Source: Candidatus Omnitrophota bacterium (GTDB taxonomy: Bacteria > Omnitrophota > Gorgyraeia > Zapsychrales > Fredricksoniimonadaceae). Taken from it: a stretch of 64,000 nt of DNA. The stretch is from positions 34,207 to 98,206 of the forward strand of contig CAILQW010000040.1 of assembly GCA_903836515.1 (NCBI GenBank), written 5' to 3'. Shown here piece after piece: positions 6,936-57,698 of the stretch (position 1 is its first letter; every line of letters starts with the position of its first letter). The position numbers were made by a program, and so were the translations under genes. The notes beneath the pieces are model-generated. The model was given only the letters and a program-made list of their open reading frames with translations. It was not told the DNA's origin and did no database searches.

Positions 6936-6967
6936 AAATTTTATCCTTTTTAACACTATCCCCTGGA

Positions 6968-10104: not shown

Positions 10105-10143
10105 ATGTTCTCCATCTGTTTGAGCGACTATAAAATATAATTA

Positions 10144-10166: not shown

Positions 10167-10217
10167 CACTGCCATTTTTATTTGTCAAAAAATACACGCC
10201 ATGTACAAGAATGTAAC

Positions 10218-12944: not shown

Positions 12945-13036
12945 GGAAAACCTCTCCTGATTGAAGAAGGAACAAAAGGAAGGGTAATTTTAACTTGGAT
13001 TGAAATAAATAACAAGAAGAAAAAGGGAAGAGACGC

Positions 13037-13420: not shown

Positions 13421-13461
13421 GGGAACGACCTTTGTGCCAACGTCTTTAAAAAATCGTATTT

Positions 13462-14175: not shown

Positions 14176-14364
14176 ATGCGTAAGAAACCAAAAGAAAAAA
14201 TTCCTTTCCAGGAATATCAGCGCATGAAGGCGCAGGATGCCAAACGTAAATTCAAAATCAAGTTCTACCCTTGGCCGGTCATGGCGACTATTTTGCTCCC
14301 GGCCATTCTCATGATCTTCATGCTGATTTATTATTTCTCCAGTATCCGCAATATGCCCGAATGA
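14176..14364 (+). CDS. Small (62 aa) single-pass membrane protein, translationally coupled to cvpA.
   Basis: Basic N-terminus (MRKKPKEKIP...KRKFKIKF) followed by one TM helix (WPVMATILLPAILMIFMLIYYF). Its stop TGA overlaps the downstream ATG (ATGA), and it has its own RBS. Confidence 0.55.
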   Translation: MRKKPKEKIPFQEYQRMKAQDAKRKFKIKFYPWPVMATILLPAILMIFMLIYYFSSIRNMPE

Positions 14365-40787: not shown

Positions 40788-40796
40788 GGGATCCCC

Positions 40797-41654: not shown

Positions 41655-41669
41655 AGGATCATTTCTGGC

Positions 41670-42005
41670 TTATGGTTGGTTGCTGCAGGCTGCCTGACAG
41701 CCTGTCTTTACCCCGTCAACACACGCCCGATAGTCGGCCGCTCGCTTGCACGGCAGGACTGCGTTATTATAACAGGCCTGCGCGTACCACACATTCAATT
41801 GATCATCATACGCGCACTCAATGGTCGCATCGGGATTATACTGCCGTAAAAACCCGAAAGTCTCCGACACCTTGCGGTACTGCCCCTGCAATCCCCGCTG
41901 GATATAACTGCGAAAAGAAAAAACAACCGCCAATACAATAATGATCAGCACCACATACTCAAGCATGGCGAACGCTTTCTCTTGTTTCCAACAGGCCCCT
42001 GGCAT
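41670..42005 (-). CDS. Flp-type (class III signal peptide) pilin paralog with a Cys-rich C-terminal extension.
   Basis: Start taken at MMGAAMPGACWKQEKAFAMLEYVVLIIIVLAVVF. AFAMLEY fits the [GAS]-x4-E-[YF] Flp processing motif followed by a hydrophobic helix. The C-terminal half has 8 Cys (ECAYDD...QACYNNAVLPCKRAADYRACVDGVKTGCQAACSNQP). The longer ORF-track start at 42143 is rejected. Confidence 0.55.
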   Translation of the reverse strand: MPGACWKQEKAFAMLEYVVLIIIVLAVVFSFRSYIQRGLQGQYRKVSETFGFLRQYNPDATIECAYDDQLNVWYAQACYNNAVLPCKRAADYRACVDGVKTGCQAACSNQP

Positions 42006-42016
42006 AGCGGCTCCCA

Positions 42017-45000
42017 TCATTGGCTGCAGCATTCGGAACAACGACGAAATGTCATTTGCATCTTGTTGCCGGATATAAAATATCTGGCGCAGGTTTCCGA
42101 AACAACCCCCTTGCTCAACAAAGCCTCCGCCGCATTGTAACATTCGATCAACGGCCCTGGCATGGAAGACTCCAGGGGTAAATTGATCATGAAAGCTTCA
42201 TTCAGATTGTCCTGTGTCATGATGGCCGCGCTGGTATCTTCCAAACGGACATAACTGTTGGTCACATTCCCCGCGGCATCCCGTTCCGATTTACGGCTGT
42301 AATGGTTCTCGATGCAATTGCGGTAAATATCCGATACATTATAACCCACATCGGTATTCCTGTTGTGCGGATTACGGTAAAGAATTTGCCAGATAGGTAA
42401 TCCGCTTAACAACTTCAAAACCCCGCCCTGCGCTGGATCATGATCCTCGTCATATCGGATCACCCGGGTGCCCACACAACCATCCGCATCCGAAATCTCA
42501 TAACAACGCGTCATGCTCAAAATGCCTTCCGTATACGTTCTGATCCACGGGAATGTATTGGTACAGGTATTAAAACCCGCCCCTCCGTGTTTGGGGATAG
42601 CCGCTTCCACCTTGACCAGATGCAAATAACCCTTTCGCGTCGCCGCATTCGATGTGTTCCACGCGCCTGGCCGCGGGGAAAGCCAGCCATAAATGACCTG
42701 GTTGCCCAAATGAGGCGCCGCCGCGATCACGGCATCAATGGAATTGACCAGCCCGATGATCTGTTGGCCTTTACCCGCAATATCATCATGCGCTTTCTGC
42801 AACACAGGCAGAAAATCTTTCATGTGCTGGAGAAGATCTCTCAAATAAGCCGCACGGGCCTTCATTTTGATGCTTTGATTGACCGCCAACGTGGCACTGT
42901 TGGAAATTTTCTTGATGTAATCCGCTGAACACGTGCCCGCGGCAACGTTACGGCCCAAATCATTATTAGGATCAAATCCAGGAACAAGCGACCGGGGAAG
43001 ATCCTTGCACGCGGCCGCGGCAACACAGGCCGTTGGGTTGGCGCTCAAAGCGCCCGCACACGCCGCAAAAGCCTGATTCAAATTGCTGTTGTAATCCAGA
43101 CAACGCAGGACGCTGTCCACAGACCCCCAGGGCGATGGGGTCGCCAGGATATAATTCTTTTCTTTCGCGGTCATGGTGGTCAAGTCCGTCGGTAAACACC
43201 ACGCATTGGCATCTGTATACGGCCCCTTCAACCACGTGTTGATCTCATCGATCCAGCGCTGCATGCGCGCTTCCATCTTGCCCAGCTCCATCCCCTGGGC
43301 AATGACCGCAGCTTTCCAGGCCGCCACAGAATACGCCAATTGCGCCTGTGTGGCCGGATTTGTCGTCAATAACGGCGTTACCGTCTGCAAGAAATACGCC
43401 ATGCCGGTTGACATGGCATCAAAACCATCGTCATACCAGAGATCCTTGTGATCCACATTGGGACACATGCAATTGGCCGCAATAGCAGCCGGAGCACCCG
43501 CCGCATTGCAAACGCCAACGGGCTGGGATGAAGACCCCTGCTCCATTTTCACCGGATAAACAATATTGCTTGAGGGGTCCTGGAACGTATCCGAATAACG
43601 GTCAGCGCCCTTTTTCCATAACAGTTTCGTTCCTGCCTCTACCGCCGGATCCCGTGCACAGTCGCTATCTGCCACAGGCCTGAATGATTCAATGTCCGGG
43701 ACCACATCCAGTTTAAAATTGGAATAACTTAACGAACTGCTCACATTGTTATTGAAGGTATTCACACAACAATCTTCACCCACACAGGTTGGCAATGACA
43801 GCTGATCATATGCCGTCGTCCCCGCAGGACGGAAAAGGAGGCGTGTCGGGGTGGGCGGCGGTGAAAAAGGCGGCGTTGTCAGCGAACAGGGCGTGACGCG
43901 CTTGTCACACCAGTGACAACCCGGCGCTTCGGCACGCATGTCTGCGGCATTGATATCCTTTAACATCGGCGCCGTATCCGCCAACAGCCACAAGAACGGG
44001 AATATCTTGCCCGTGCTGTCCGCGCCGCGGAATATCGGCATCCAGGGATCCGGTATTTCCGCACCGGCAGAAAAATATTTTTTCTTGTTGGCATCATCCA
44101 TGCCCATCACGCTCAGGAAAGACGTGCTGACGTTCTTTTGAACATAAAGTGGATCATACGCATAACAAGCGGTCAACTGGTTCGCAGAAGGCGCACAGCC
44201 GGGAGCGCTCAAGCACTCCTGAGGTACCAACTCCGGCTTTTTAGGATCCAGGGAACAGGCCGCAGGCCGCATCGTCGGATCCGTACAACACGGATTGCAT
44301 TGCGGCCTTAACTGCGGACCAGTGCCCAGGTCAACATAACATACCGCCGGATTGCCGCCAGAAAGCCCCAGCGCATCCACAACGCCCTGTAACGTCTGGC
44401 GCAAGGTATCGATCGCCGTGGTGGGCGGTAACGGTATCCCCCGCATCCGGTCTGTGTAATAAAAGGCGAACCGCGAAACCTTGGCGGCAGGATCCCCCTT
44501 CTGAGGGTACTCCCGGATATACCAATGCGTGTTCCCATCAAGATCCCAACGGTCTGTCACCAGCACCGGATCCCCTGTTGCCAGATTCAAGGCGGTGCTG
44601 ATCCCGTTCTCCAGATACTTATCTTCAATGGTGGGCAGGTTCTTCTGCCATTTATTCCACATCTTTGTCAGGCCCGGCTGAACCACGGTTACCTGCAACA
44701 CAATGGCGGCAACGGCCAGTCCAATGGAAATAGCCGCCACCGTCCCTGCAGAAAGCCCCATGGCACTACCAGCGACCTCCCCAGCCCCAGGAATCACACA
44801 CGTAAGAACAACAATCGCCACCAAGGCAATGATGGCCGCCAAAACACCCGTAAACCCGCATTTTTTAGCTTCTCCACCCAACTGTGTCTGGATCAGATTC
44901 TCGCCATAACCAGCCATGAGCGAAACAAGCGCTGCCGCAGCACTGTTGGAGGCAATGGTCACCGTTGTCTTCGTTGACGCGATCCTGGACCAGTTGATGG

Positions 45001-45079
45001 TCACGGCGTACAAAACAAAGGCGACAGCAACCATCAGGATCACAACAAGGGACATTTGTCCTTTACGGGACAGTGGCAT
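42017..45079 (-). CDS. TadG-like pilus-associated protein, 1020 aa, with a very large Cys-rich extracellular domain (candidate tip adhesin).
   Basis: N-terminus GQMSLVVILMVAVAFVLYAV...SNSAAAALVSLMAGYG resembles the TadE/TadG N-terminal (Tad) domain. Additional TM/Gly-Ala helices follow, then ~800 aa with >40 Cys (e.g. CNPCCTDPTMRPAACSLDPKKPELVPQECLSAPGCAPSANQLTACYAYDP) ending in RRCSECCSQ. It is embedded in the tad operon. Confidence 0.55.
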   Translation of the reverse strand: MPLSRKGQMSLVVILMVAVAFVLYAVTINWSRIASTKTTVTIASNSAAAALVSLMAGYGENLIQTQLGGEAKKCGFTGVLAAIIALVAIVVLTCVIPGAGEVAGSAMGLSAGTVAAISIGLAVAAIVLQVTVVQPGLTKMWNKWQKNLPTIEDKYLENGISTALNLATGDPVLVTDRWDLDGNTHWYIREYPQKGDPAAKVSRFAFYYTDRMRGIPLPPTTAIDTLRQTLQGVVDALGLSGGNPAVCYVDLGTGPQLRPQCNPCCTDPTMRPAACSLDPKKPELVPQECLSAPGCAPSANQLTACYAYDPLYVQKNVSTSFLSVMGMDDANKKKYFSAGAEIPDPWMPIFRGADSTGKIFPFLWLLADTAPMLKDINAADMRAEAPGCHWCDKRVTPCSLTTPPFSPPPTPTRLLFRPAGTTAYDQLSLPTCVGEDCCVNTFNNNVSSSLSYSNFKLDVVPDIESFRPVADSDCARDPAVEAGTKLLWKKGADRYSDTFQDPSSNIVYPVKMEQGSSSQPVGVCNAAGAPAAIAANCMCPNVDHKDLWYDDGFDAMSTGMAYFLQTVTPLLTTNPATQAQLAYSVAAWKAAVIAQGMELGKMEARMQRWIDEINTWLKGPYTDANAWCLPTDLTTMTAKEKNYILATPSPWGSVDSVLRCLDYNSNLNQAFAACAGALSANPTACVAAAACKDLPRSLVPGFDPNNDLGRNVAAGTCSADYIKKISNSATLAVNQSIKMKARAAYLRDLLQHMKDFLPVLQKAHDDIAGKGQQIIGLVNSIDAVIAAAPHLGNQVIYGWLSPRPGAWNTSNAATRKGYLHLVKVEAAIPKHGGAGFNTCTNTFPWIRTYTEGILSMTRCYEISDADGCVGTRVIRYDEDHDPAQGGVLKLLSGLPIWQILYRNPHNRNTDVGYNVSDIYRNCIENHYSRKSERDAAGNVTNSYVRLEDTSAAIMTQDNLNEAFMINLPLESSMPGPLIECYNAAEALLSKGVVSETCARYFISGNKMQMTFRRCSECCSQ

Positions 45080-45093
45080 AGAAAAATCCTTGT

Positions 45094-45342
45094 TTATTTC
45101 TTATATAGCAATGTATCCATTGTCCGAACCTCGTGAAAATTCGGATTCACCTGCTGTTCTGTGGTCAAATTCTTGTTGCTCAAGATCGCATCATGATCAT
45201 ACCGCCGTTCCGCCATATCCATCATGCCCCAGCGAAAAACCTCGATCATGCCATAAACGATCAACGACAGGGCGATCATGCCTGCCGTAAATTCGAGGAT
45301 GCTCTGGGCTTTGTTTCTTTTATTAAAAAACACCATGCTCAT
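45094..45342 (-). CDS. TadE-like minor pseudopilin (82 aa).
   Basis: KRNKAQSILEFTAGMIALSLIVYGMIEVFRW matches the TadE-like N-terminal hydrophobic domain. Its start overlaps the upstream gene stop by 4 nt. Confidence 0.6.
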   Translation of the reverse strand: MSMVFFNKRNKAQSILEFTAGMIALSLIVYGMIEVFRWGMMDMAERRYDHDAILSNKNLTTEQQVNPNFHEVRTMDTLLYKK

Positions 45343-47129
45343 TTTGCCCCCAGGCTCTGCTGCCAGTCCTCATCGGTGGCCGTTACCCATTTGCGCCCGC
45401 GTTTGTCACTGATACGGCTTCGAATAAAAAGGGTCTTGGCATCCTTGTCAAAACATGTCTGCGCCGACCCCATGCAACAGCCGCCACCAATACCAATATA
45501 GGAATACCCCGTGGGCGTTGTCGCGGCGCCACCGCTGCATGACGTCTCGATGCTTTTATTCCTCGCCAGCAACGCGTCAGGATCGATCATGTTCACATTC
45601 AACTGCAAAATGCGCTCCACAACGTCATACTGGCTTTTTTTGACCGTGCTGATATTAAGCGGGGTCCCGTCCGATGAGTATTCCTTGCCCTCTCTCACAT
45701 CAAAATAAGTATACCCCCCGTCATTGGTCCGCGTATAGATCCGCATATCGGCGCGCATCCCCGGGCGCCGGTTAGGATCCACAAAATCCTCCGCACCCTT
45801 GGTCGTATCATAATCAGCAACAGCCGTATCCATGACGGACACAATGTAACCCTTGTACGCCCCGCACACCGTTGTCTTTCGGGGTGGCGTTTGCGCCGGA
45901 AAATTAGCTTCAATGAGAAGCCTGTTCAATTGCTGCAATTCCAGAACACTTAACACTTCTCCCGCCTTCAAACGATCAATGAACGCCGTGGTTGTGGCAG
46001 GCTGAACGGACATGGCTTGATACACGTTCGGGTCCACCAACAAACTGTTCAAGCGGTCGATCTCCGTTGCCCCGGCGGGAACCGTAATACCGCTGGCCTC
46101 AATAGCATCTATCAAGGCGGCCGGGGTCAGGGGCGCTGCAAATTCACTGATAGAAAAGATATACGGTGATTCCAGCTTTTCCAGATCATAAACCGTCTCT
46201 TCGGATAAATCACCATTGGTATCGTATGTTGGAAAATTCCCGTTATCCTTGTCGATCTTGCCGACCACCGTATCGATCGAATCCCACCGCCATTGCCACA
46301 TCGCATAATCATAATTGGGAAGGTCATCATCATAAAAGCCATTGCGCGTGTAATCAAACCGCCGCTGCGTATCCGCCGTCAGGCTGTAATCCGTATCATT
46401 GCTGACGATCGCCTGATAAAACGGCGGGTACCCGCCCTCGGGGTGATTGGTCCATTCATACACAAGCCGCTGACGCTGAACCTTGTTCTCAGCGCTGTTC
46501 AAATTGATAACACACGGGTCACCGGGACAGCTCTGCCGCCATCCGATCTTCCAGTTGATGTTCGGGTCCGTGGATGAGGAATTCAGGATCGGTGCCGGAC
46601 ATGCGCCCCCCTCAGGTTTATACATCATAATGACAACATCATCCGGGTTGGCATCTTCCAAACGCGCAGGAACGGCCGCCCCTTCTCTAAGAAGGATCTT
46701 GTAATGGACAAACGCGCTCGTGGTGAATTCAAACTCCTGCCCGTTCACCTTGACATCCATCATGGGCAGATCCTGGGGCTCGTTCCAGTCCACAGGCATG
46801 AAGACATTTTTGCTCAGCATGCCCGCCCCGGAAGCCGTGACCGGCTGGCGATCCTGGGATCCATAGCGACCGAAATCTCCATTCAAACGATCTTCGTAAT
46901 ATAAATATGAGGCACTGACCCGTGAATGTGTCCCGGCCTGAGACGACTGATAGGATTTCAGCATGGCGATGCGCATGGCCTGGAGCCGCGAGTTTTGCTG
47001 GAGAGAACCGGAAACGGCATTGAGAGCCATCCCCCCGATCAGGAAAAAAAGCACAGCGCCAAAAACCGCCAATTCAATGATGGATTGCGCGTTCTTTGAC
47101 GCCTTGACAGGGTCCTGATCGTTTTTCAT
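45339..47129 (-). CDS. Large (596 aa) TadE-like pseudopilin with an extended extracellular domain.
   Basis: The N-terminus KASKNAQSIIELAVFGAVLFFLIGGMALNAV is a TadE-type prepilin-like segment. It is followed by ~540 aa of W/Y/D/N-rich secreted-type sequence with 6+ Cys. Confidence 0.55.
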   Translation of the reverse strand: MKNDQDPVKASKNAQSIIELAVFGAVLFFLIGGMALNAVSGSLQQNSRLQAMRIAMLKSYQSSQAGTHSRVSASYLYYEDRLNGDFGRYGSQDRQPVTASGAGMLSKNVFMPVDWNEPQDLPMMDVKVNGQEFEFTTSAFVHYKILLREGAAVPARLEDANPDDVVIMMYKPEGGACPAPILNSSSTDPNINWKIGWRQSCPGDPCVINLNSAENKVQRQRLVYEWTNHPEGGYPPFYQAIVSNDTDYSLTADTQRRFDYTRNGFYDDDLPNYDYAMWQWRWDSIDTVVGKIDKDNGNFPTYDTNGDLSEETVYDLEKLESPYIFSISEFAAPLTPAALIDAIEASGITVPAGATEIDRLNSLLVDPNVYQAMSVQPATTTAFIDRLKAGEVLSVLELQQLNRLLIEANFPAQTPPRKTTVCGAYKGYIVSVMDTAVADYDTTKGAEDFVDPNRRPGMRADMRIYTRTNDGGYTYFDVREGKEYSSDGTPLNISTVKKSQYDVVERILQLNVNMIDPDALLARNKSIETSCSGGAATTPTGYSYIGIGGGCCMGSAQTCFDKDAKTLFIRSRISDKRGRKWVTATDEDWQQSLGAK

Positions 47130-47131
47130 GC

Positions 47132-47455
47132 CTACAGACCTGCGGGTTCCATTAATGTTGAACTTGTTTTTGCTTCAACAGAACTTGATGTGTCTTTCCT
47201 ATATGTAAAAGAACCATTGGAGCCGTTGACAATCCCCGGAACAACATAAAGTCGAGATTCGGATGTTGTGTCCGTCATATAATGTGTATTGCCATGAAAA
47301 CCCTGGGCATCATATTGCTCCCCGAGATCATCGACAGATTGTTTCCAGCGCCCCTGAAAACCACGCTTAATATAAACCTGCATGGTTAAAAAGGCGGCAA
47401 TAATGATCATGAGCAGGATCGAATACTCTAATAGACTTTGAGATTTCTTCATCAT
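47132..47455 (-). CDS. Flp-type pilin paralog.
   Basis: Start MMKKSQSLLEYSILLMIIIAAFLTMQVYIKRG. It has the [GAS]-x4-EY motif plus a hydrophobic helix and a Gly/Ser/Thr-rich tail. The ORF-track start at 47596 is rejected because it has no RBS and overlaps the upstream pilin gene. Confidence 0.7.
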   Translation of the reverse strand: MMKKSQSLLEYSILLMIIIAAFLTMQVYIKRGFQGRWKQSVDDLGEQYDAQGFHGNTHYMTDTTSESRLYVVPGIVNGSNGSFTYRKDTSSSVEAKTSSTLMEPAGL

Positions 47456-47456
47456 A

Positions 47457-47786
47457 TCAATCCTTGGTGAAACCCATATTGGTCTGCGAATTTGTGGACG
47501 TTTCCGTCCGCTCAAGAACCGCTGACGTGATCGTTCCGCCGTTATCGCCGCGCGTATTATCCACAGCGCCATGCGTTGACGTATTCGAAAATTCAAGATA
47601 GCCGCTGGTCCCGCTTGTCAGGTCCTGTTCAGCGTTCTTCTGATCGCCGATCTGATCTGCCGCCACCTTGATCATGCTCTGGGTTGTCCGCTTGACCCGC
47701 GGGAACATGTAAACAACCGCAGCCACCACCATGGATACCAGCAGGGCATATTCCATCAACGATTGCGCGCGGCGAGAAAAAAACAT
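47457..47786 (-). CDS. Flp-type pilin paralog.
   Basis: MFFSRRAQSLMEYALLVSMVVAAVVYMF... Confidence 0.7.
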   Translation of the reverse strand: MFFSRRAQSLMEYALLVSMVVAAVVYMFPRVKRTTQSMIKVAADQIGDQKNAEQDLTSGTSGYLEFSNTSTHGAVDNTRGDNGGTITSAVLERTETSTNSQTNMGFTKD

Positions 47787-47795
47787 GGCTCACCT

Positions 47796-48143
47796 CTACA
47801 TGGCATCCTTGGGCGCCAATTGTTCGCTGTTCGCATTAACACGGCGATCCGTGTTGATATCTTTTTGACGGCCAGCCGTTACTGTTTTTTCTTCTTCTTT
47901 AACACCGGCTTGTACGGCTGTAACAGAATTCACATAATATGGCTCATACTCAATCTGGACCGCATTACCGGATGCCCCTGCCGCCCGCATCACCATCAGC
48001 ATGTCAGCATCCCGGATACGCCCTTGAATAGTCCGGCGCACATACGTCGTCATGGTGATGATCGCGGCAATCACCACAAAAATCATAAGCACATATTCAG
48101 CGCTGATGCCCTGGGCTTTGGCAGTGCGGGAAATCTTCACCAT
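47796..48143 (-). CDS. Flp-type pilin paralog.
   Basis: MVKISRTAKAQGISAEYVLMIFVVIAAIITMTTYVRRTIQGR... Confidence 0.7.
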   Translation of the reverse strand: MVKISRTAKAQGISAEYVLMIFVVIAAIITMTTYVRRTIQGRIRDADMLMVMRAAGASGNAVQIEYEPYYVNSVTAVQAGVKEEEKTVTAGRQKDINTDRRVNANSEQLAPKDAM

Positions 48144-48213
48144 AAACTTCCCTTATTGAAAAATAAAACCAGGAAGGGCGCATGAAGACCCTTCCTGGTT
48201 CATCATTGACCCA

Positions 48214-48528
48214 TTAATTCCCCCAATACTCCCCATACGCATTCGTTCCGATCCTGCGGTATGAATTCGTGATCGTATCTGCCATCAAGTTGGTGCTGGC
48301 AACCCCCTGGACATTGTTGTCCCTGATCGAGGAATTCGTCGTCACAACTTTATAAAAATTGGCAGCCTTCGCATCCGAATACTGATCACCGATATCATCC
48401 GTCGCACTTTGTAAACGGCCCTGTATACCACGTTTGATATAAGTCTGCAAGGTCAGCAGCGCGGCGATGATAATGACCATCAAAATCGCATATTCCAGCA
48501 CGCTCTGACCGCTTTTTGTTTTTAACAT
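48214..48528 (-). CDS. Flp-type pilin paralog.
   Basis: Start MLKTKSGQSVLEYAILMVIIIAALLTLQTYIKRGIQGR. The ORF-track start at 48666 is rejected. Confidence 0.7.
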   Translation of the reverse strand: MLKTKSGQSVLEYAILMVIIIAALLTLQTYIKRGIQGRLQSATDDIGDQYSDAKAANFYKVVTTNSSIRDNNVQGVASTNLMADTITNSYRRIGTNAYGEYWGN

Positions 48529-48547
48529 AATAAATACCTTCCTTTCA

Positions 48548-48925
48548 TTAGTAACCACTGGCGGCTTCACCACTGAGCGCGCTATTGGATGCACTAACAG
48601 TATTCTTGTTGTAATTTGTCGTATCGACATAGCCCGCGGCCCTCTTGGTGCTGATGGTCGTATCAAGCTGTTGGTCTATGGTCTGCTCTTTCTTTGAGCC
48701 TTTGTCTGTCTGTGCGCTTGTATTGGTATAATACGGCTCATACTGCAGGGTATTGCCGATCTCCGTGGTGCTGTCACGGAACATCACGCTCGCATCACGC
48801 AAGCGGCCCTGCAACGTGCGCTGAGCATACGTCTGCATGGCGATAACACCGCCAACAACCAACGCGATCAAAATCGCATATTCGGCGGTATTTTGAGCCT
48901 TTTTGTTTTTAAATAATTTTAACAT
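48548..48925 (-). CDS. Flp-type pilin paralog.
   Basis: Start MLKLFKNKKAQNTAEYAILIALVVGGVIAMQTYAQRTLQGR. Confidence 0.7.
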   Translation of the reverse strand: MLKLFKNKKAQNTAEYAILIALVVGGVIAMQTYAQRTLQGRLRDASVMFRDSTTEIGNTLQYEPYYTNTSAQTDKGSKKEQTIDQQLDTTISTKRAAGYVDTTNYNKNTVSASNSALSGEAASGY

Positions 48926-49006
48926 TCTGTCCTCCTCCAATTAAAACTTTTAAGATCATCGTAAACACGATAAAATGCCTTTTAACTTCAGAACGACCGC
49001 ACACTC

Positions 49007-49683: not shown

Positions 49684-51525
49684 CTAAAGGGATGCTTTTT
49701 CAATTGAAAAATGCCATCTTTTGTTGTGGTGCTCTTCAAATATATTGCTATTTATTCTATTAATTAGGGTTTCGACCTGTTGTGTATAAGAAAACCCTTC
49801 AGGAAGGATCAACCGGATGAGAGCAAGACCTTGCCGTTGCTGAAAATAACCGGAAAGACAATAGAGCGACTGTAAAATGCCGTGATCTTCTATATCTAAA
49901 AATTTATATTTAATATATTCTTCAAAAATATGTACTAATTTTTGTAATGTAAACTTTTTAGTTCCATCCTCTTCATTATGAATTGATTTATTCAGTGTTT
50001 CTTGAATGTATTTTTTTGTTTTATTATCATTATCTTCTATTTTAAAATTTAATAACTTTGCTAAATTATCATTTATTATGCTAGTTACTGTGTGATTTTC
50101 ACTCTCTATATTTGTCAAAAAAATAATTTTCTTTTCTTTTCCCTGTAGAGAAACAACAACAGCGCGTAAAACATCAGCCTCTCCATCCATCGGCGTGAAA
50201 CGATAGGAGCCCCCTAAAATGTTATATTTCTTATCTAATATTGAATTGTATATGGATTGAGGATTTTTTATCACTTCAAATTCTATGTTTTCAAGCGAAA
50301 ATTGCTCCTCATCAAAACCTGCTATAAAACAAATCTTCCGCCCCGCCTTGATATCAGATTCCCATATTAAATTATTGTTTTTCCCCCACAAAGAAATTTT
50401 TTCCGGGTTTTCAGCTCCAGAACCATTTAAAACAGAGATCATTTTTCTGACGGCGGGAACAAGACCTTGCGGGCAATTGAAAACAAGCGGTTTTATGGGG
50501 AAAACCACACGATCAACCGCGTCATCTATAGCCTTAATCATCGGGAAAGAGGATCCCGTTGGTGCTGTCTCAAATATCTGGGTAAGATCATCACTCAAAA
50601 AATAATTATGGCCGCCATTGGTCTTAATACAAAAATATCCATTCTTAAGAAAAACGAGCTCTAGCTCTGCTTCAATCGCTGCCCTGAAAACTATAGATGT
50701 AAAATCTTTCTCTAAAAATTGTTCTAGCGACGCCTGGCCTTTCTTACGATCAAGATCAAGCAAGGTCCACACAACATCAGAACTTACGGCATGGGCATCA
50801 ACCATCCCGCCTCGGCCCAACGCTGTGAACAAAATAACAGCTTCCAGCATTCTAGCGTTCGCTACCGTCTGACGACCATCCTGAGACAAAAAGGTCGAAA
50901 CCATCGGCCGCCGTAAACTATCTGACAAAACCGCTTCAAGAAACGCGATTCCCATATTTTCAAATATTGGCCCTTTTTCACCCGACCAGAAAAATTCATC
51001 TTTTAACGGGACAAAATCTATAGGGCGTTCCTGGGTGAACTGGCCTATTGACAAGCTGTTCCTCAACCGATCTGGTCCAAGTTTTAATAGTTCGGGGATA
51101 TCTTCAAAAAAATCATCGGATTCATCAGGATTTAACATATCGGCTTGCGTTATAACCTGATGGCCTTCTGTTTGCACTTCTGCCGGCAACTCAATTCCCT
51201 TCCCATTTTCAGAAAGATCCCCCTCAGTGGTACTACAGGGCACTGGCTGAACAATGTTAGCATCCGGAAGAAACGGAATAACTTGGGCTAATAATTGATC
51301 TTTTTTATCTTTGGGAATATAAAAATTCTGGGAAGGTTTGCGACCGACTGGACTGCTAAGCTTATACTCTTTGATAACCGCATTAATCGAAGATTTTGAA
51401 ACTTCTATGTGAAATACTTCTTTTAATAGTGCTGCAATTTTACGACAGCTTAACGATGGGTCATTTTTTTTCTTTTCTACAATGACTTGAACAACTTCTT
51501 TTTTTAATTTGTATATCACGCCCAT
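49684..51525 (-). CDS. 613-aa protein with an N-terminal HTH, encoded by a compositionally distinct (low-GC) segment; unknown function, possibly a horizontally acquired regulator or mobile-element protein.
   Basis: N-terminus LSCRKIAALLKEVFHIEVSKSSINAVIKEY is HTH-like. The 3' half (forward coordinates ~49700-50400) is strongly AT-rich and Lys/Asn/Ile-rich, unlike all flanking genes. It interrupts the tad locus between the tadZA-DUF192 genes and the flp array. Confidence 0.5.
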   Translation of the reverse strand: MGVIYKLKKEVVQVIVEKKKNDPSLSCRKIAALLKEVFHIEVSKSSINAVIKEYKLSSPVGRKPSQNFYIPKDKKDQLLAQVIPFLPDANIVQPVPCSTTEGDLSENGKGIELPAEVQTEGHQVITQADMLNPDESDDFFEDIPELLKLGPDRLRNSLSIGQFTQERPIDFVPLKDEFFWSGEKGPIFENMGIAFLEAVLSDSLRRPMVSTFLSQDGRQTVANARMLEAVILFTALGRGGMVDAHAVSSDVVWTLLDLDRKKGQASLEQFLEKDFTSIVFRAAIEAELELVFLKNGYFCIKTNGGHNYFLSDDLTQIFETAPTGSSFPMIKAIDDAVDRVVFPIKPLVFNCPQGLVPAVRKMISVLNGSGAENPEKISLWGKNNNLIWESDIKAGRKICFIAGFDEEQFSLENIEFEVIKNPQSIYNSILDKKYNILGGSYRFTPMDGEADVLRAVVVSLQGKEKKIIFLTNIESENHTVTSIINDNLAKLLNFKIEDNDNKTKKYIQETLNKSIHNEEDGTKKFTLQKLVHIFEEYIKYKFLDIEDHGILQSLYCLSGYFQQRQGLALIRLILPEGFSYTQQVETLINRINSNIFEEHHNKRWHFSIEKASL

Positions 51526-51622: not shown

Positions 51623-51967
51623 TTAAGAAACAATCTGCATTTGATCGCCCAACGATGTTTTAGTCCGCTCAATGGTGCCGGTGGGAAGCTCTAAGACCTT
51701 GTCTGCTTTCCAAAAAATAGGGCTGAGTTGATTGGGCTTAATATGCCTCACCAACCCAACAACGTGACTATTGCGGTCAAGGAATACAGCATCAATCGCA
51801 AATTTCATAAAAAACATATGGATTGAATTGCAGTGCGTAATAATGAGACATTGTCCGTCCTTAAATGATGGTACTCCCAAAAGACCACGTGCACGCGTGA
51901 AAAAAGTATCCGCAAGCCATGCCTCCAGAGAAAGGACATTGTTATTCGTAAGATTTTTTATGATCAC
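51623..51967 (-). CDS. DUF192 (COG1430) family protein.
   Basis: 114 aa. Conserved-looking blocks ARGLLGVPSFKDGQCLIITHCNSIHMFFMKFAIDAVFLD are typical of DUF192. It overlaps the upstream tadZ-tadA stop (coupled). Confidence 0.5.
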   Translation of the reverse strand: MIIKNLTNNNVLSLEAWLADTFFTRARGLLGVPSFKDGQCLIITHCNSIHMFFMKFAIDAVFLDRNSHVVGLVRHIKPNQLSPIFWKADKVLELPTGTIERTKTSLGDQMQIVS

Positions 51968-54141
51968 TGGGCAGGAACACTCTTGTGCGGCAGGAACATT
52001 TCTTCTTTAAGCTCAACCCCGCGCTTGACAATATCTTCAAAACATTGGGGGATATAACCGGTTGGTCGGAATTCACCTAAAACACGTCCAGATTTATCAA
52101 GTCCCTGATGTTCGAAAACAAAAATATCTTTAAGTTCAGGTAAACCATCCACAAGATTTCCGGTTACTTCCGTTATGGCCGTAATTTTGCGTGTCCCATC
52201 GGAAAAACGCGAAACCTGAACGACAATATCGATCGAAGAAGCAACCATTTCATAGACCGCACGCAACGGAAGTTCTATCCCGCTTAAAAGCATCATGGAA
52301 TTCAAGCGCGTGATGGCGTCACGCGTTGAATTGGCGTGCAACGTGGTCAATGAACCATCATGGCCCGTGTTCATGGCCTGTAACATATCCAAAACCTCGG
52401 CACCACGACACTCACCGATAATGATGCGGTCAGGACGCATACGCAGGGTGTTCATGAAAAGATCCCTGATCAGTATCCCTCCTTTGCCCTCGACGTTAGG
52501 CGGGCGGGACTCAAGCCTGGCCCAATGGGACTTGTTAAGCTTTAACTCAGCCGCATCCTCAATAGAAATGATACGTTCTCCGTCGGGGATATACTCGGAA
52601 ATAATGTTAAGGAGTGTCGTCTTGCCGGAACCTGTCCCTCCGGAAACGATCATGTTCTTGCGCACAACGACTGCGGCCCGGATGAATTCAGCCATGGCCG
52701 GCGCCAAACTCTTGAATCGCCGCAAAAGATCGTCCATCCCATAACGGTCCTGGCCAAACTTCCTGATGGTGATCATGGGTCCGCGCAAAGAAAGCGGAGG
52801 GATGATCGCATTAATACGCGACCCGTCAGGAAGACGCGCATCCACCATGGGCACAGATTCATCGATACGCCGGCCCAGCGGCGCAATGATGCGGTCAATC
52901 ACAGAACGTACCTGCTGATTTGACACAAACCGTTTATTGGTATGAATAATCTTGCCGCTCTTTTCAACGTAAATTTCATCCTTGTTATTGACCATGATAT
53001 CTGTCACGTCCGGGTCAGCCAGCAATTCCTCAAGGGGCCCGAGGCCAAGGGCCTCGTTCACAATATCTGTAACAAGTTTCGCACGCTCCTGATGCGAAGA
53101 AACAAGGGCCCCGGACTCTTCTGCCAACAAATTAACAATGATCCGTTCCGCCTGTTTCTTGATCTGCGCCGACTGCTCAGGATCTGACAAGGCTTCGGGG
53201 GTGATGGCCTGAAGGTTCATCCGCTCAATCAGTTTTTCATGGACCCTCTTTTTAAGAAGGATGGCCTCATCTTCATCTTTTTTGACTGTATACTTGGCCT
53301 GGACCGCGGCCATTTTTTCATTAATGCCGAACTTTTCCCAGAAATTATCAGCCGTGGCTTCCTCGGTGGCACGGACCCGGATGACTTCCGTGGTATTGAC
53401 ATAAATACTTTCGTTCTCAAGATCCTTGGTCAGCTGCATGAACGCCAGGGAAACCTTGGCTTTGGGATTATCCACAACAACCGGAATACCCCTGTTAAGG
53501 GCCATCCCGACGACTTTACCGTCAGAGGGCACACGTGAAATGATGTCGCATGTCAGGGCGTCTTTCACTTCCTGCCAGGCGACACCCCCGTGACTTTCAG
53601 CGCGATTAAGCACAAGCTTGATCATCTTCAACGGAAAGTGTTCGCTTTGGAGAATTTCCATGCCCCACTTGATCTGATACACCGAAAGGATGTCCGGTGT
53701 GGCAACCAGAAGAATAAGGTTGGAGATATCCAGGATCGACATCAGCGTTTCTGTAAATGTCTTTCCCACGTCGACAATAATATAATCGTAATGCGGGGAA
53801 ACTCTTTTGAAGAAAAGCTTCACGTTATCCGGCGTAATATGGCCCATCTGGCGGATATTGGTGACAGCCGTGATAAAATCAAGGCCCGACGAATGGGTGA
53901 TCATGAATTTCCTGACATCAACAGCCTCTGTTGATTTTTCCATCTCAGGAAGGACTTCAACAATAGATTGATCCGGCGCCAGATTCAGCATCCGCGCCAT
54001 ATCCTGTCCGGACTGAAAATCAAGATCAACAACCAGTGTTCTTTTGCCCGATAAAGACAACGCAACGGCTGTATTGACACAAACAAATGTTTTGCCAACA
54101 CCGCCTTTATTGCTGAAAACCGTGATTATTCTTGCTGACAT
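51964..54141 (-). CDS. tadA: Fused TadZ(CpaE)-like MinD/ParA ATPase domain + TadA/CpaF secretion ATPase (725 aa).
   Basis: The first ~260 aa, ARIITVFSNKGGVGKTFVCVNTAVALSLSGKRTLVVDLDFQSG...DYIIVDVGKTF, form a deviant-Walker-A ParA/MinD fold as in CpaE/TadZ. The C-terminal ~450 aa carry the CpaF/TadA VirB11-like core (IVSGGTGSGKTTLLN...ISIEDAAEL...RMRPDRIIIGECRGAEVLDMLQAMNTGHDGSLTTLHANS). Confidence 0.8.
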   Translation of the reverse strand: MSARIITVFSNKGGVGKTFVCVNTAVALSLSGKRTLVVDLDFQSGQDMARMLNLAPDQSIVEVLPEMEKSTEAVDVRKFMITHSSGLDFITAVTNIRQMGHITPDNVKLFFKRVSPHYDYIIVDVGKTFTETLMSILDISNLILLVATPDILSVYQIKWGMEILQSEHFPLKMIKLVLNRAESHGGVAWQEVKDALTCDIISRVPSDGKVVGMALNRGIPVVVDNPKAKVSLAFMQLTKDLENESIYVNTTEVIRVRATEEATADNFWEKFGINEKMAAVQAKYTVKKDEDEAILLKKRVHEKLIERMNLQAITPEALSDPEQSAQIKKQAERIIVNLLAEESGALVSSHQERAKLVTDIVNEALGLGPLEELLADPDVTDIMVNNKDEIYVEKSGKIIHTNKRFVSNQQVRSVIDRIIAPLGRRIDESVPMVDARLPDGSRINAIIPPLSLRGPMITIRKFGQDRYGMDDLLRRFKSLAPAMAEFIRAAVVVRKNMIVSGGTGSGKTTLLNIISEYIPDGERIISIEDAAELKLNKSHWARLESRPPNVEGKGGILIRDLFMNTLRMRPDRIIIGECRGAEVLDMLQAMNTGHDGSLTTLHANSTRDAITRLNSMMLLSGIELPLRAVYEMVASSIDIVVQVSRFSDGTRKITAITEVTGNLVDGLPELKDIFVFEHQGLDKSGRVLGEFRPTGYIPQCFEDIVKRGVELKEEMFLPHKSVPAQ

Positions 54142-54150
54142 GCAGCCTTC

Positions 54151-55884
54151 TCAATTATGTGTTGCGACATTCTTAAGGAATGAATCCAAACTGTACACAA
54201 TAGAAACAACGATCTGCGTCTTATCTGACTGAGCAGACTGGGGCGGCGCTGAATAAGGCGCAAGGATTTGTGCGGTATTGACCGCATCCTGATCAAACAC
54301 CTTATACCCTGAAGATTCCTTGACCTTTACATCCTTAAGCGTGCCTTCTTTATCAAGGGTCAGGGCAAGTTTGACCGTTCCCTGCCAATTCTTTTCCTGA
54401 GCTTCGTACGGATACGCGATGGCAGACGCAATTTTGTTCTGGATCGTTAACGCATAATTTTCAAGCGCGGTCGCACCGGCCACAACCGGCGGCTTGACGG
54501 CCTCAATGGGCTTTGACGCAACGCCAGTTGCGGATGCAGGCGCCACCACAGCAGCCTTGACCGGAAGCCTGGCTTCAATTTTTTGTTCGGGCAGCTTGGT
54601 CTCTGAAGTTATATCCGCACTTTTCCCTGAACGTAAAATCGTGGGTGTAATGGAAATTACAACTTCTGTTTCCTCATTGGCCACCGGTGTCTTGGTGCTT
54701 CGAAAAAGCATCCCGACCACCGGGATACGGCTCATGAACGGAACACGCCGGACCAATTCATTGTCCCGGCGCTTGATCATCCCGGCCAAAACAATCGTTT
54801 GCTTATCTTCCAGCAAAAGCTGGGTATTAGCAGAACGTGTCAAGAACGCCACATCCGTTCCTGTGGGTTTAGAGGTATCAATTTCACTGATCTCGGCATG
54901 CAAAAGGATATTGACCAAATGGCCCGCCTGAATGGACGGCGTGATCGCCATGCTGACGCCATACTCTTTAAATTCCACGTTTTGCTGGGTCGAACCGCCG
55001 CTGGCACTGGTTGTTGTGGTCTTGATGGGGATTTCACCGCCCACCAGGAATGTGGCCTCTTTGCCGCTGATGACAACAAGGCGCGGCTTGGAAAGGACTT
55101 TCGCCTTCCCTTCCTGGATCATGGCATTGATCGCCGCAATCAGGGCATTCGTGCGGCTAAAATCACCAACTTTCCAGAGGTCCTTGAAAGAACCGTTGCC
55201 CTTGGGAATAGATATTGACGATGGCAGGTTTTCCTGATAATTGGCGGTCAAATCGCTGGTCGCAGTCCCCGTCCCCCAATCCACACCCATAGCTTTTGTG
55301 AGTGTTGTTGAAAGTTCGGTGATCTGCATGTCAATCTGGATCAAATCCTCGATCTTTTCTTTTTGAACAAGATTAATAACACGGTCGGAAAAAGGCTCTA
55401 TCACTTTAGTCAGCACATCCATCTTCTCTTCGGTCAGACTGCCTGTGATAACAACCTTGCCTTCATCCGCATTTTCATTGAGCGTCACCCCGAGCACGCC
55501 CGCCCCTGTCAGCAAGCTTTGGACTCTTTTTTTGACAAGCCCGGTGTCCTCCTGAACAACACGGATGACAACCGTGCGCTTACCGCCGTCATCCCAGATA
55601 AACAGGATTGTTTGTCCTGCCTCAATGCCGATCACGTCGACGGCGTCGGCACGGGCATCATTGATATCCGCCACCACAGGATCGGTGATGGAAACACGTT
55701 TCAAATTTTTGGCAGGAATGCTTTGAATGTCTCCCTTTAAAACCTGAATCTCTTCATAGGCGCGCGTCGAAGGAACAACGGGCGCCGCCCAAAGAGCGGC
55801 CGGCGTCCCGCCCAAAAGAAAAGCGGCAACACCCAGCAGCATCAACGGGGTTTTCATGATTTTAAACAAAAAAAACGTGCCCAT
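54151..55884 (-). CDS. cpaC: CpaC/RcpA-type secretin with an appended C-terminal TonB_C-like domain.
   Basis: Signal peptide MKTPLMLLGVAAFLLGGTPAALWA. N-terminal pilus-formation (BON-like) domain. The secretin core is VVISGKEATFLVGGEIPI...VLAGMIKRRDNELVRRVPFMSRIPVVGMLFRSTKTPVANEETEVVISITPTILR. The last ~100 aa (AIAYPYEAQEKNWQGTVKLALTLDKEGTLKDVKVKESSGYKVFDQDAVNTAQILAPYSAPP) match the TonB C-terminal domain pattern (YP..A...eGtV.l.f.i...G.v.dv.v..SSG...lD.aA). Its start overlaps the cpaB stop by 1 nt. Confidence 0.8.
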   Translation of the reverse strand: MGTFFLFKIMKTPLMLLGVAAFLLGGTPAALWAAPVVPSTRAYEEIQVLKGDIQSIPAKNLKRVSITDPVVADINDARADAVDVIGIEAGQTILFIWDDGGKRTVVIRVVQEDTGLVKKRVQSLLTGAGVLGVTLNENADEGKVVITGSLTEEKMDVLTKVIEPFSDRVINLVQKEKIEDLIQIDMQITELSTTLTKAMGVDWGTGTATSDLTANYQENLPSSISIPKGNGSFKDLWKVGDFSRTNALIAAINAMIQEGKAKVLSKPRLVVISGKEATFLVGGEIPIKTTTTSASGGSTQQNVEFKEYGVSMAITPSIQAGHLVNILLHAEISEIDTSKPTGTDVAFLTRSANTQLLLEDKQTIVLAGMIKRRDNELVRRVPFMSRIPVVGMLFRSTKTPVANEETEVVISITPTILRSGKSADITSETKLPEQKIEARLPVKAAVVAPASATGVASKPIEAVKPPVVAGATALENYALTIQNKIASAIAYPYEAQEKNWQGTVKLALTLDKEGTLKDVKVKESSGYKVFDQDAVNTAQILAPYSAPPQSAQSDKTQIVVSIVYSLDSFLKNVATHN

Positions 55885-56732
55885 TAATTGGCCCCCCTTC
55901 CACTTTTATAAATCTGAATCGCGGGTCCCGACGGGGAAGGTTCGGCTTCAGAATCCTTCTTGGAGCTGTCTGACACATTAAGATCAGCACCCGTATTTTG
56001 TAAAACATATTCCGCCAGGGTTGACCAGGTGGCGGCGGAAATCATGGCCGGCTTCTTCTCATTGGGCGAGCGCAGGGCCAGTTCAATTTTTCCGTTCTTT
56101 TCCGCGAATGACAAAAGACTTGCCTCTTCCGGCGTCACCGCAAAGGTGATCTTCAGGGAACGATCCTTTTGCTGTTCATCATACACACCGGGCTGATCAA
56201 TGTTTGTATTAATAGCGAGGATCTGAAGATTCTGAAAAATCATCGCGGTAACCGCTTCTTTTTTCTCTTTTTCCTTACCGGCAAAAGCCTCTGTCTTTGG
56301 CATGCTCAACTGGGCAATAACATCCACATAATCGCCAGGGTTAAGAAGACCGCCAACAGCCCCCAACGACTCGATCATGACGGTGATCGCACGCTTCCCG
56401 GCCGGCATCCGCAATGCCAGGGACACAGCCTTGCGTTCCTTCTTGGCATCCTGCCCAAGACGGGCCTGCTCTGTAGCGGCCTTGGCCGCATCCTGGGCCG
56501 CCTGCTGTGCGCGCTGCTCGACCTGGGAGATCTTTTGATTCAGCGCGCCCAGATCCTGTTTATACATCTCGTCCCGTTGTTTTTGCTCTTTCTGGAACTT
56601 GCGGGCGATCTTGTCCGTCTGCTCATTGATCGAACTTTGCACAAAATTACTGACCAAAAAAGCGGCAACAAGACCCGTACCTACGGCTGCAATCAGTACA
56701 AAGAATTGTTTCTTATTTTCCATCAATGCCAT
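55884..56732 (-). CDS. cpaB: Flp pilus assembly protein CpaB/RcpC.
   Basis: 282 aa. N-terminal TM (FFVLIAAVGTGLVAAFLVSNFV), a coiled-coil linker and a SAF/CpaB-type beta domain (RAITVMIESLGAVGGLLNPGDYVDVIAQL). Confidence 0.75.
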   Translation of the reverse strand: MALMENKKQFFVLIAAVGTGLVAAFLVSNFVQSSINEQTDKIARKFQKEQKQRDEMYKQDLGALNQKISQVEQRAQQAAQDAAKAATEQARLGQDAKKERKAVSLALRMPAGKRAITVMIESLGAVGGLLNPGDYVDVIAQLSMPKTEAFAGKEKEKKEAVTAMIFQNLQILAINTNIDQPGVYDEQQKDRSLKITFAVTPEEASLLSFAEKNGKIELALRSPNEKKPAMISAATWSTLAEYVLQNTGADLNVSDSSKKDSEAEPSPSGPAIQIYKSGRGAN

Positions 56733-56747
56733 AGATCATTCTCCCTT

Positions 56748-57698
56748 TTATTCTTTTAAGAGGTCCTCATTAACCTGGACCTTGATCTCCCGCTGGATGT
56801 CCTTAACCTTCGCGGCAAGAAGTTCCTGCTGTTTACGAAGTTTCAGGAAATTTGAAAGATCTGCCTTAACCTCATCAAAAGGAACCTGCTCACCGCCAAG
56901 AACTTCTTCGACCTTGGCAATATAAAAGCCGTCCGGCCCCTCAAACACCGATGAAACACCGCCTCTCTTCAAATTGGCAACAGCGGTTGCCATGGCCGCG
57001 AAAGGCGCTTCGGTCTTAAAGCCAAGATCGCCGCCATTCGATGCTGTCTTGCCTTTCGATTTATCCTTGGCGATCTGAGCAAAATCACCGCCCTGCAGGA
57101 CCTGGACAAGAATATCATTCGCTTCAGACTGTGACGCGACAACAATTTCACGAAGGCGCTTCTCAAGGGGCTTCTTAAACTCGTTGGGATTGTCGGTATA
57201 ATATTTCTTAATTTCTTCGTCACTGATAACGACATCTTTTGTCAACCGTGTCACGGTTTCCTGCACCAGCAGAGTATTTTCAAATTCCTTCATCGCCGCC
57301 TTGATATCGGAAGAATCCTGCGCACGATCTTTCCGTGCCTGTTGAATCAAAAGTTGTTGACGGACGAGTTCATTAAGAAGCATGGCCTTGGCACCGGCTT
57401 CTTTCTCATTGAAATCCTTCACCGTTTCCTTGACCGCCTTGATGCGATCATTGAATTCATCGCGTGTGATGGCCCAATCGCCGACTTTGGCAAGGACTCC
57501 GGCAGGCAAAGGCGTTTTGTCATTGACGCTGGACGGATTTTCAGCCACGGGCGCAGCCGCCTTGTCAACGGACACTTTTTCGGATTTTTTTACCTTTTCT
57601 GATTTCTTGGGAGCAAGAAGATCGCAACCCGCCATGGCCAACAAAGAGCTGCACACAACAAACATGATCAGTTTATTTACCTTCATACATCCCTCCAC
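56748..57698 (-). CDS. PpiC/parvulin-type peptidyl-prolyl cis-trans isomerase lipoprotein (SurA/PrsA-like).
   Basis: Lipoprotein signal MKVNKLIMFVVCSSLLAMAGC. The parvulin domain is FAQIAKDKSKGKTASNGGDLGFKTEAPFAAMATAVANLKRGGVSSVFEGPDGFYIAKVEE. Confidence 0.75.
   Translation of the reverse strand: MEGCMKVNKLIMFVVCSSLLAMAGCDLLAPKKSEKVKKSEKVSVDKAAAPVAENPSSVNDKTPLPAGVLAKVGDWAITRDEFNDRIKAVKETVKDFNEKEAGAKAMLLNELVRQQLLIQQARKDRAQDSSDIKAAMKEFENTLLVQETVTRLTKDVVISDEEIKKYYTDNPNEFKKPLEKRLREIVVASQSEANDILVQVLQGGDFAQIAKDKSKGKTASNGGDLGFKTEAPFAAMATAVANLKRGGVSSVFEGPDGFYIAKVEEVLGGEQVPFDEVKADLSNFLKLRKQQELLAAKVKDIQREIKVQVNEDLLKE

Follow-up and report, generated by a model that had tools for sequence, protein, structure and literature searches.

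A TonB/TolA-type C-terminal domain fused to the Tad pilus secretin of Omnitrophota

How is a secretin installed and held in the cell envelope when its pore domain has been extended by a module best known from TonB and TolA? The targeting, insertion and anchoring of secretins vary from system to system, with pilotins, AMIN domains, LysM partners or CpaD taking part, and the case of the Tad (Flp) pilus is only now emerging. The question has a particular setting in Omnitrophota, a phylum whose members are ultra-small and probably live as predators or parasites, and whose attachment to hosts is believed to centre on Tad pili. It is raised here by a 64,000-nucleotide stretch of a Candidatus Omnitrophota contig (CAILQW010000040.1), which we call the window throughout. 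A gene on its minus strand, at 54151-55884, encodes a Tad pilus outer-membrane (OM) secretin of the CpaC/RcpA type that ends in a TonB/TolA-type C-terminal domain (TonB_C).

The gene is a single open reading frame (ORF) of 577 codons plus a stop. The minus-strand translation is clean, whereas the plus-strand translation of the same interval contains many stops; the initial annotation, which was made from the sequence alone, had given no strand. From the N- to the C-terminus, the product consists of a signal peptide, CpaC/RcpA-type N-domains, the Secretin domain, a disordered linker and TonB_C. The pore domain matches Pfam PF00263 over aa 254-418 (54631-55125; 143.4 bits, E 6.5e-42) and spans aa ~180-420 at the level of the family; RcpA (8odn) is among the secretins that it matches by sequence in the PDB. 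Beyond the Pfam secretin match, the protein continues for 159 aa, made up of a linker of ~55 aa and a folded domain of ~105 aa (473-577). The initial annotation had located the domain correctly, at residues ~470-577, and had underestimated the tail as a whole at ~110 aa. The linker (aa 419-472; 54469-54630) is rich in Ala, Val, Pro and Lys (A12 V7 K6 P6 in 55 residues) and is predicted to be disordered, with a predicted local distance difference test (pLDDT) score below 50 over residues 422-470 in the AlphaFold2 (AF2) model.

The folded part of the tail (aa 473-565; 54190-54468) is a true member of the TonB/TolA C-terminal domain family. The Pfam TonB_C model (PF03544) matches aa 489-566 with 63.2 bits against a gathering cutoff of 24.6 (E 3.3e-17), accompanied by a weak match to TonB_2, and the NCBIfam model TIGR01352 (tonB_Cterm) gives 57-60 bits against a cutoff of 27.1. 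The TonB/TolA motif that the initial annotation had quoted is literally found in the protein, as YPYEAQEKNWQGTVKLALTLDKEGTLKDVKVKESSGYKVFDQDAVNTAQ. The full-length AF2 model, for which a 70-sequence family alignment served as input, has a mean pLDDT of 80.6 and is confident for both N-terminal domains and the secretin domain. In the C-terminal domain it contains helices at 473-488 and 493-498, strands at 502-511 and 516-523, a helix at 528-540, a strand at 555-564 and a last helix at 566-576; the topology is thus helix, short helix bearing the YP motif, beta1, beta2, helix, beta3. Modelled alone, the domain reaches a pLDDT of 87.5 and a predicted template modelling score (pTM) of 0.77. When this model was compared with the PDB using Foldseek, the top 26 matches were all C-terminal domains of TonB, TolA, HasB or FusB at a probability of 1.00, with template modelling (TM) scores of 0.55-0.79 over those 26 chains and the Helicobacter pylori TonB domain ranking first (TM 0.71/0.73). 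The model contains the three-stranded sheet packed on helices (a beta-beta-alpha-beta core) of solved TonB C-terminal domains.

Sequence comparison leads to the same relatives. A profile of the family's C-terminal region aligns over the whole domain with the H. pylori TonB C-terminal domain (E 3e-12), and the alignment reaches from the N-terminal helix to the final IPI.YSL strand (beta3). Ahead of beta1, the YP motif is conserved in 90% (Y491) and 100% (P492) of 70 homologues, and the beta3 strand, PIVYS, is near-invariant across the family. The final amphipathic helix (aa 566-577, DSFLKNVATHN; 54154-54189), which AF2 predicts with lower confidence, is found in about half of the homologues; the rest stop just past beta3. 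Secretin and TonB_C both score above the Pfam threshold, and the fold predicted for the C-terminal residues is that of TonB_C. Profiles and fold therefore agree with the initial annotation that the last ~100 aa carry a TonB/TolA signature, and its assignment to CpaC-type Tad secretins is borne out by the Pfam architecture together with the surrounding Tad locus.

At its other end, the protein looks like a secretin. A Sec signal peptide is predicted for aa ~1-33 (55786-55884), with cleavage between ALWA and AP, and the region has no lipobox Cys, so the secretin is not a lipoprotein. AF2 places a helix at aa 4-25 followed by disorder at aa 27-40. The N-terminus is thus a cleavable signal peptide, MGTFFLFKIMKTPLMLLGVAAFLLGGTPAALWA followed by AP, with no His-containing anchor; neither a TonB-type N-terminal inner-membrane (IM) helix nor an SHLS-type motor-binding motif was found in the secretin sequence. 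Lacking the membrane anchor, it is not a TonB protein. The signal peptide is followed by the N-terminal beta-sandwich typical of CpaC/RcpA (T2SS-T3SS_pil_N, PF13629; aa 45-109, 55558-55752; 30.9 bits, cutoff 23), all-beta in the model with pLDDT >90, and by a second periplasmic alpha/beta domain of N1-like type (aa 113-176, 55357-55548; H-E-E-H-E, also pLDDT >90), which has a faint Pfam match to Yop-YscD_ppl_3rd. Pfam gave no match to STN (N0) or Secretin_N in the secretin.

Is such a protein an oddity of one genome? Several samples and assemblers have yielded the identical 577-aa protein, on at least 18 contigs in all. In a search of a collection of 5.8 billion proteins, all of the best 120 homologues, down to 41% identity, carry PF03544 and PF00263 together, and the organism names, wherever given, are Omnitrophota or Omnitrophica. 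We also surveyed 145 relatives, taking one genome per GTDB species, and scanned the best 80 loci with family hidden Markov models (HMMs). Seventy-eight of the 80 secretin ORFs end in TonB_C. The two exceptions have runs of N inside the gene, and one of them still has TonB_C, in another frame past the gap, so that the fusion is present in 79 of the 79 assessable species-level loci. Seven loci have two tandem copies. Ordinary CpaC secretins, both in the homologue search and in comparator loci, lack TonB_C, as the initial annotation had supposed in calling the extension no standard feature of Tad secretins, and the same extension recurs across the clade in related loci. The fusion is thus a clade-wide trait of Omnitrophota, not a quirk of a single genome.

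Its limits were sought with two further searches. An exhaustive HMM search with the TonB_C alignment over 1.84 billion representatives returned 88 clusters at E<=1e-30. Most secretin fusions reach at least 100 bits per domain, a level seen otherwise only in fragments of such fusions; divergent two-copy fused members scored ~50-80 bits per domain. Starting from P0172, one of the most divergent fused members, a search recovered 55 fused proteins at E<=1.6e-96; the next matches were ordinary CpaC proteins of 470-570 aa at E 3.4e-31 and 25-32% identity, and none of these carried TonB_C. We take this to indicate that the fusion defines an Omnitrophota clade of Tad secretins. It is specific to the Tad secretin, because in the divergent two-copy lineage L081, where the order PPIase-RcpC-secretin-CpaEF (peptidyl-prolyl isomerase, PPIase) is kept, a PilQ-type secretin on the same contig has STN and Secretin_N and lacks TonB_C. 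That protein belongs to a type IVa pilus cluster (9627-14721, after the Tad module), with PilM, PilO and an MshE-type ATPase. The label "Hydrothermarchaeota archaeon" on one member of the same protein cluster as this divergent fused secretin was treated as mis-binning, as the same gene order is unchanged there, and the titles "uncultured Planctomycetales" and "Elusimicrobia" among the GTDB loci are probably labelling issues, the synteny being the same. When the C-terminal 150 aa by themselves served as query in a word-indexed protein search, the only matches were eight short fragments of the same family, which gave no clue to the origin of the domain. Proteins with three to six tandem TonB_C repeats were rejected as relatives; their domains score 15-70 bits each, and their rank comes from the summing of repeats. 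These proteins (P0129, P0140, P0148, P0161 and others) have signal peptides, divergent repeats and no secretin domain, and one of them is annotated as Omnitrophota.

The pattern of divergence within the family is also informative. Pairwise identity averages 58% in TonB_C, 56% in the pore domain, 52% in the N-domain (T2SS-T3SS_pil_N) and 18% in the linker, whose length ranges from ~27 to ~227 aa across species. Such identities, together with the variation of the linker, mark TonB_C as a functional domain carried by a flexible tether, and the comparison shows strong purifying selection on it. The same data bear on whether the fusion could be a mis-joined ORF (a frameshift or chimera) or a decaying, neutral fusion with a neighbouring tonB. 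The NCBI name "TonB family protein" hints at some annotation confusion, and two of the 80 loci first seemed to lack the domain. An artefact or relic is nevertheless effectively refuted by the recurrence of the identical ORF on independent contigs, by the presence of the fusion in every assessable locus once the N-gaps are accounted for, and by a TonB_C that is as conserved as the pore domain and is duplicated in several lineages.

What, then, might the domain do? The gene content of the Tad locus, which is complete in the window and lies entirely on the minus strand, provides one line of evidence. The secretin's partners there are CpaB/RcpC, TadZ/CpaE, TadA/CpaF, TadB, TadC and Flp pilins. A lipobox scan found no lipoprotein in the locus besides a PPIase, hence neither a TadD-type pilotin with tetratricopeptide repeats (TPR) nor CpaD, and no TPR lipoprotein was found in the 37-58 kb part of the window. 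The short S-domain tail of pilotin-dependent secretins is here replaced by the linker and TonB_C. Directly downstream, after 9 nt, lies a 725-aa CpaE(TadZ)-CpaF(TadA) fusion ATPase (51964-54141; Pfam AAA_31/ParA and T2SSE), which adjoins the secretin in 77 of the 80 loci, so that no gene occupies the position between the secretin and cpaE-F, the cpaD slot of ordinary loci. As comparators we used three ordinary, non-fused Tad loci. One, L085, has a CpaD lipoprotein (PF09476) directly after cpaC and a TPR protein upstream; in another, the secretin gene is followed by one for a 121-aa lipoprotein, and the locus closes with a TPR lipoprotein; the third, L086, has just a 67-aa ORF after the secretin. 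A TadD pilotin is itself not a universal feature of Tad systems (PMC13170226).

The one lipoprotein that the locus does have is a SurA/PrsA-like parvulin PPIase (56748-57698; Pfam Rotamase_2 and SurA_N) with the predicted lipobox LAMAGC, followed by D. It lies upstream of cpaB in 68 of the 80 loci and could be a chaperone, or a substitute pilotin, for the secretin. Its position could equally be mere conserved synteny, since mdh and gyrA are syntenic too.

On this basis, and with moderate confidence, we propose that TonB_C is a built-in docking or anchoring module for the secretin that replaces helper lipoproteins, and not a transducer of proton motive force (PMF). In our proposal, the Omnitrophota Tad secretin would have gained a complete TonB/TolA C-terminal domain at the end of its pore domain, by way of a variable disordered linker. 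An assembled 12-14-mer would then have as many TonB_C modules hanging from the periplasmic face of its barrel, at the place where other secretins end in the short S-domain to which a pilotin lipoprotein binds. Each module may add a partner's beta-strand to the edge of its own sheet, and the captured partner, which could be a strand of a protein in the periplasm or OM, or perhaps the cell wall, would tie the secretin ring close to the OM. The module would thereby stand in for the separate TadD pilotin and CpaD anchor lipoproteins that are absent from the locus.

The proposal draws on several precedents. The C-terminus of a secretin is found outside the barrel, on its periplasmic side, and in Pseudomonas aeruginosa RcpA the last four residues bind the TadD pilotin, an interaction without which assembly fails (PMC10499894). 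The Caulobacter lipoprotein CpaD, encoded just downstream of cpaC, is essential and has been modelled as a belt around the secretin that anchors it to peptidoglycan (PG) (PMC13170226). TonB and TolA C-terminal domains bind their targets by beta-strand addition (PMC12204202). A TonB-like protein acting on a secretin in trans is known from ExeB, which binds ExeD N0N1 during assembly (PMC4098917), and type IVa pili depend on PocAB-TonB3 (PMC5285504). From these precedents we infer both that TonB_C binds its partner by strand addition and that it serves assembly or anchoring; the periplasmic location of the C-terminus would likewise follow from known secretin topology. A protein strand is favoured over PG as the captured element because of the near-invariant beta3 PIVYS and because TonB_C domains are not established as PG binders.

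Several points weigh against this proposal. The periplasmic C-terminus is taken from other secretins, and the positional analogy with cpaD stands on three comparator loci. The Pro-containing disordered linker is ~27-35 aa long in some species and up to ~227 aa in others, where it could span the periplasm and so allow an IM-proximal partner. The view is also confined to 64 kb, and ExbBD/TolQR, TonB-dependent receptors or a TadD-like pilotin could be encoded elsewhere. A TPR protein and a lipoprotein do occur within the window, at 2881-4592, some 50 kb from the secretin, and this TPR protein may be a remote pilotin. The genes concerned form a minus-strand group at 2881-6956 (a lipoprotein of 227 aa, a TPR protein of 342 aa and a TPR-GH2 fusion of 779 aa) that adjoins a sugar ABC transporter and a GH94 phosphorylase.

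The initial annotation had floated anchoring to PG or to a partner, direct reach to the IM, and coupling to an energised system. Anchoring remains plausible; IM reach and energised coupling are disfavoured by the lack of a TonB-type anchor, the absence of ExbB/ExbD from the window and the linkers of ~27-35 aa in some species. Those linkers should keep the domain near the OM/PG zone, and this distance would also suit a variant of anchoring in which the TonB_C modules attach straight to the sacculus and so hold the secretin ring at the cell wall. Neither a CpaD-type protein nor any other PG-binding accessory is encoded in the locus, where a comparator has CpaD right after cpaC, and cryo-electron tomography of Caulobacter displays density joining the secretin base to PG (PMC13170226). 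Direct PG binding nevertheless strikes us as rather unlikely: the near-invariant beta3 edge strand suits capture of a protein strand better, and none of the PG-binding families LysM, OmpA_C, AMIN and SPOR matches the secretin in Pfam or NCBIfam. A 2008 study by Kaserer and colleagues reportedly found PG affinity of the TonB C-terminus. The PG contact of the Ton system that has experimental support is that of ExbD (PMC10771500), to which a review assigns a LysM-like PG motif, and we have down-weighted PG anchoring accordingly.

Coupling to a motor is a still less probable role. Here TonB_C would link the pore to a PMF-driven motor of the ExbBD/TolQR type, or to another force generator, and so power gating, pilus retraction or the passage of a substrate. 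TonB_C is the canonical module for receiving and transmitting force, and the linkers of some species are long enough to cross the periplasm. In A. baumannii, one paper reportedly links TonB2 to natural transformation. TonB paralogues are genetically needed for P. aeruginosa type IV pili (PocAB-TonB3, PMC5285504). The domain of the secretin is, however, fixed on the OM side, opposite to the arrangement in every known transducer. We found no ExbB, ExbD, TolQ/TolR, TonB-dependent receptor or second TonB_C in the 64-kb window and no motor genes in the Tad locus. Canonical energy transduction is thus unlikely, given a signal peptide in place of an anchor or SHLS motif, the lack of nearby motors, the OM-side attachment and the short linkers of some species. 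An "inverted TonB system", in which the ring of TonB_C domains captures a TonB-box-like strand of an IM-anchored component and passes force to the pore, seems to us a long shot of the same order; the candidate strands would be the single C-terminal strand of CpaB or one on a motor-linked protein. If it were true, the pore might be gated, or braced against pilus retraction during attack on a host cell, and this would constitute a new mechanical coupling of a type IV filament machine across the envelope.

The CpaB strand deserves separate consideration, since its capture by TonB_C is a specific sub-case of docking or anchoring, an "inverted" TonB/TonB-box pair that would couple the OM and IM halves of the machine. 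The CpaB/RcpC alignment-complex gene lies immediately upstream of the secretin (55884-56732; Pfam RcpC E 2.3e-24), overlaps its start by 1 nt and adjoins it in 78 of the 80 loci. At the extreme C-terminus of CpaB (55884-55925; ...PAIQIYKSGRGAN in the window), a single strand, KP[YF]IQIF[RK]GG[KR]EL, is conserved behind a variable charged linker in 78 loci. Non-fused comparators keep a two-strand RcpC hairpin there, and the hairpin of the TonB_C-fused clade appears to have been cut to one strand and a GG turn. The alternating hydrophobic pattern of the strand resembles that of TonB boxes. In P. aeruginosa, however, it is the RcpA N-domain whose sheet the homologous RcpC hairpin completes (PMC12307814). 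The Omnitrophota secretin retains this N-domain with good conservation, which makes it, and not TonB_C, the parsimonious receptor, and species with two TonB_C copies have an unchanged CpaB motif. Because the CpaB strand is homologous to the first strand of the N-domain-binding hairpin, we regard it as a lead, and a TonB_C-CpaB pair as improbable, if somewhat less so than an energised secretin. Docking or anchoring through a strand of some periplasmic or OM protein is the role that we favour.

The remaining genes of the neighbourhood complete the picture of a conserved locus. The block gyrA-mdh-PPIase-CpaB-secretin-CpaEF-DUF192-HTH-flp (HTH, helix-turn-helix) is kept in nearly all of the ~80 related loci. 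CpaE and CpaF are separate genes in two of the three non-fused comparators; L086 has a 687-aa protein with a faint ParA match and T2SSE. Between the ATPase and the pilin genes lie a DUF192 protein (51623-51967, there in 63 of 80 loci) and a 613-aa protein with an N-terminal HTH (49684-51525, there in 53 of 80), neither of which is a standard Tad component. The rest of the Tad locus (39882-48940, minus strand) was assigned from ORF translations and Pfam. Five tandem Flp-like pilin genes (47132-48940) and one further Flp-like ORF (41670-42143) were recognised by the Flp-type N-terminal motif, and Pfam gave one weak Flp1_like match among the ORFs of the locus; the C-terminal part of these pilins is unusually long for Flp (~110-150 aa as called). 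TadB and TadC are represented by the two ORFs with T2SSF matches, at 40797-41654 and 39882-40787, the large TadE/TadG-like proteins measure 596 and 1020 aa, and a 748-aa protein is also listed for the locus. No prepilin peptidase (Peptidase_A24) was found among the scanned window ORFs. Directly downstream of the Tad locus, also on the minus strand, is a giant ORF of 7270 aa (15182-36994), in which the sole Pfam match, to Peptidase_C39 over aa 209-287, falls just short of the threshold (21.5 bits, cutoff 22). Poorly annotated giant ORFs of this kind are known for Omnitrophota (PMC10066038).

In the literature that we searched, no description of a secretin-TonB_C fusion was found, and the fusion is mentioned neither in the Tad structural papers nor in the TonB/TolA evolution paper. 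The main Omnitrophota paper treats Tad and RcpA and never TonB (PMC10066038). A 2026 preprint notes genes for a "TonB C-terminal domain" beside giant ORFs and counts them as TonB content, with the secretin unmentioned (10.64898/2026.06.07.730766); these may well be the fused secretin of Omnitrophota. Databases record both Pfam domains and name the proteins either "TonB family protein" or "CpaC"; the architecture is thus on record there, with no interpretation attached. We do not regard it as a new kind of system, and the function that we assign to it is a putative one.

Recognising the fusion corrects the routine mis-annotation as "TonB family protein" and supplies a marker, at the level of sequence, by which the Tad secretin clade of Omnitrophota can be recognised. 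That Omnitrophota have fused a strand-capture domain to the pore itself points to another way of installing or anchoring a secretin, and the fused protein should provide a compact test case for roles of TonB_C outside energy transduction. Omnitrophota are difficult organisms to work on. Given the place of Tad pili in host attachment, such an odd feature of the pore bears on how these cells attack others.

Among known systems, the closest are the RcpA/CpaC Tad secretins themselves (P. aeruginosa RcpA-TadD, 8ODN; Caulobacter CpaC-CpaD), which share the N-domain, the pore domain and the locus partners, and whose C-terminal end is also the site of accessory interactions. The end of RcpA is a short, unstructured S-domain that binds TadD through its last four residues (PMC10499894), whereas the Omnitrophota secretin ends in a linker and a folded TonB_C; Caulobacter CpaC depends on the separate lipoprotein CpaD (PMC13170226), and here the locus lacks both TadD and CpaD. 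With the C-terminal domains of TonB, TolA, HasB and FusB (H. pylori TonB, 6SLY and 5LW8), the module shares the fold, the YP and SSG motifs and the IPI.YSL-type beta3, and the homology extends to the additional N-terminal helix seen in the long construct of the H. pylori domain. TonB and TolA have an IM helix that plugs into ExbBD or TolQR; in the secretin, the N-terminal side of the domain is joined to an OM pore. No motor genes lie nearby, and in some species the domain is duplicated in tandem.

A TonB-related module is likewise tied to a secretin of the type IV filament family, in assembly or localisation, in ExeB/GspB-ExeA of type II secretion and in PocAB-TonB3 of P. aeruginosa type IVa pili. 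ExeB and TonB3 are, however, separate IM-anchored proteins with motor or ATPase partners, whereas here the module sits in cis at the C-terminus of the secretin; TonB3 has been proposed to contact the N0 domain of PilQ (PMC5285504), and such a domain (N0/STN) is missing from the present Tad secretin. The AMIN domains of PilQ, the LysM domains of TsaP and FimV and the OmpA-like CpaD share with our proposal the principle of an extra periplasmic module that fixes a secretin in the envelope. They differ from TonB_C in fold and in position (AMIN is N-terminal), and PG binding is hypothetical here. Finally, TonB-dependent receptors of the MxcH type (NF038079) also have a TonB_C fused to an OM beta-barrel and facing the periplasm, and the NCBIfam model for them matches the secretin's TonB_C weakly. 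There, the fusion is at the N-terminus of a receptor barrel; in Omnitrophota, it is at the C-terminus of a secretin barrel.

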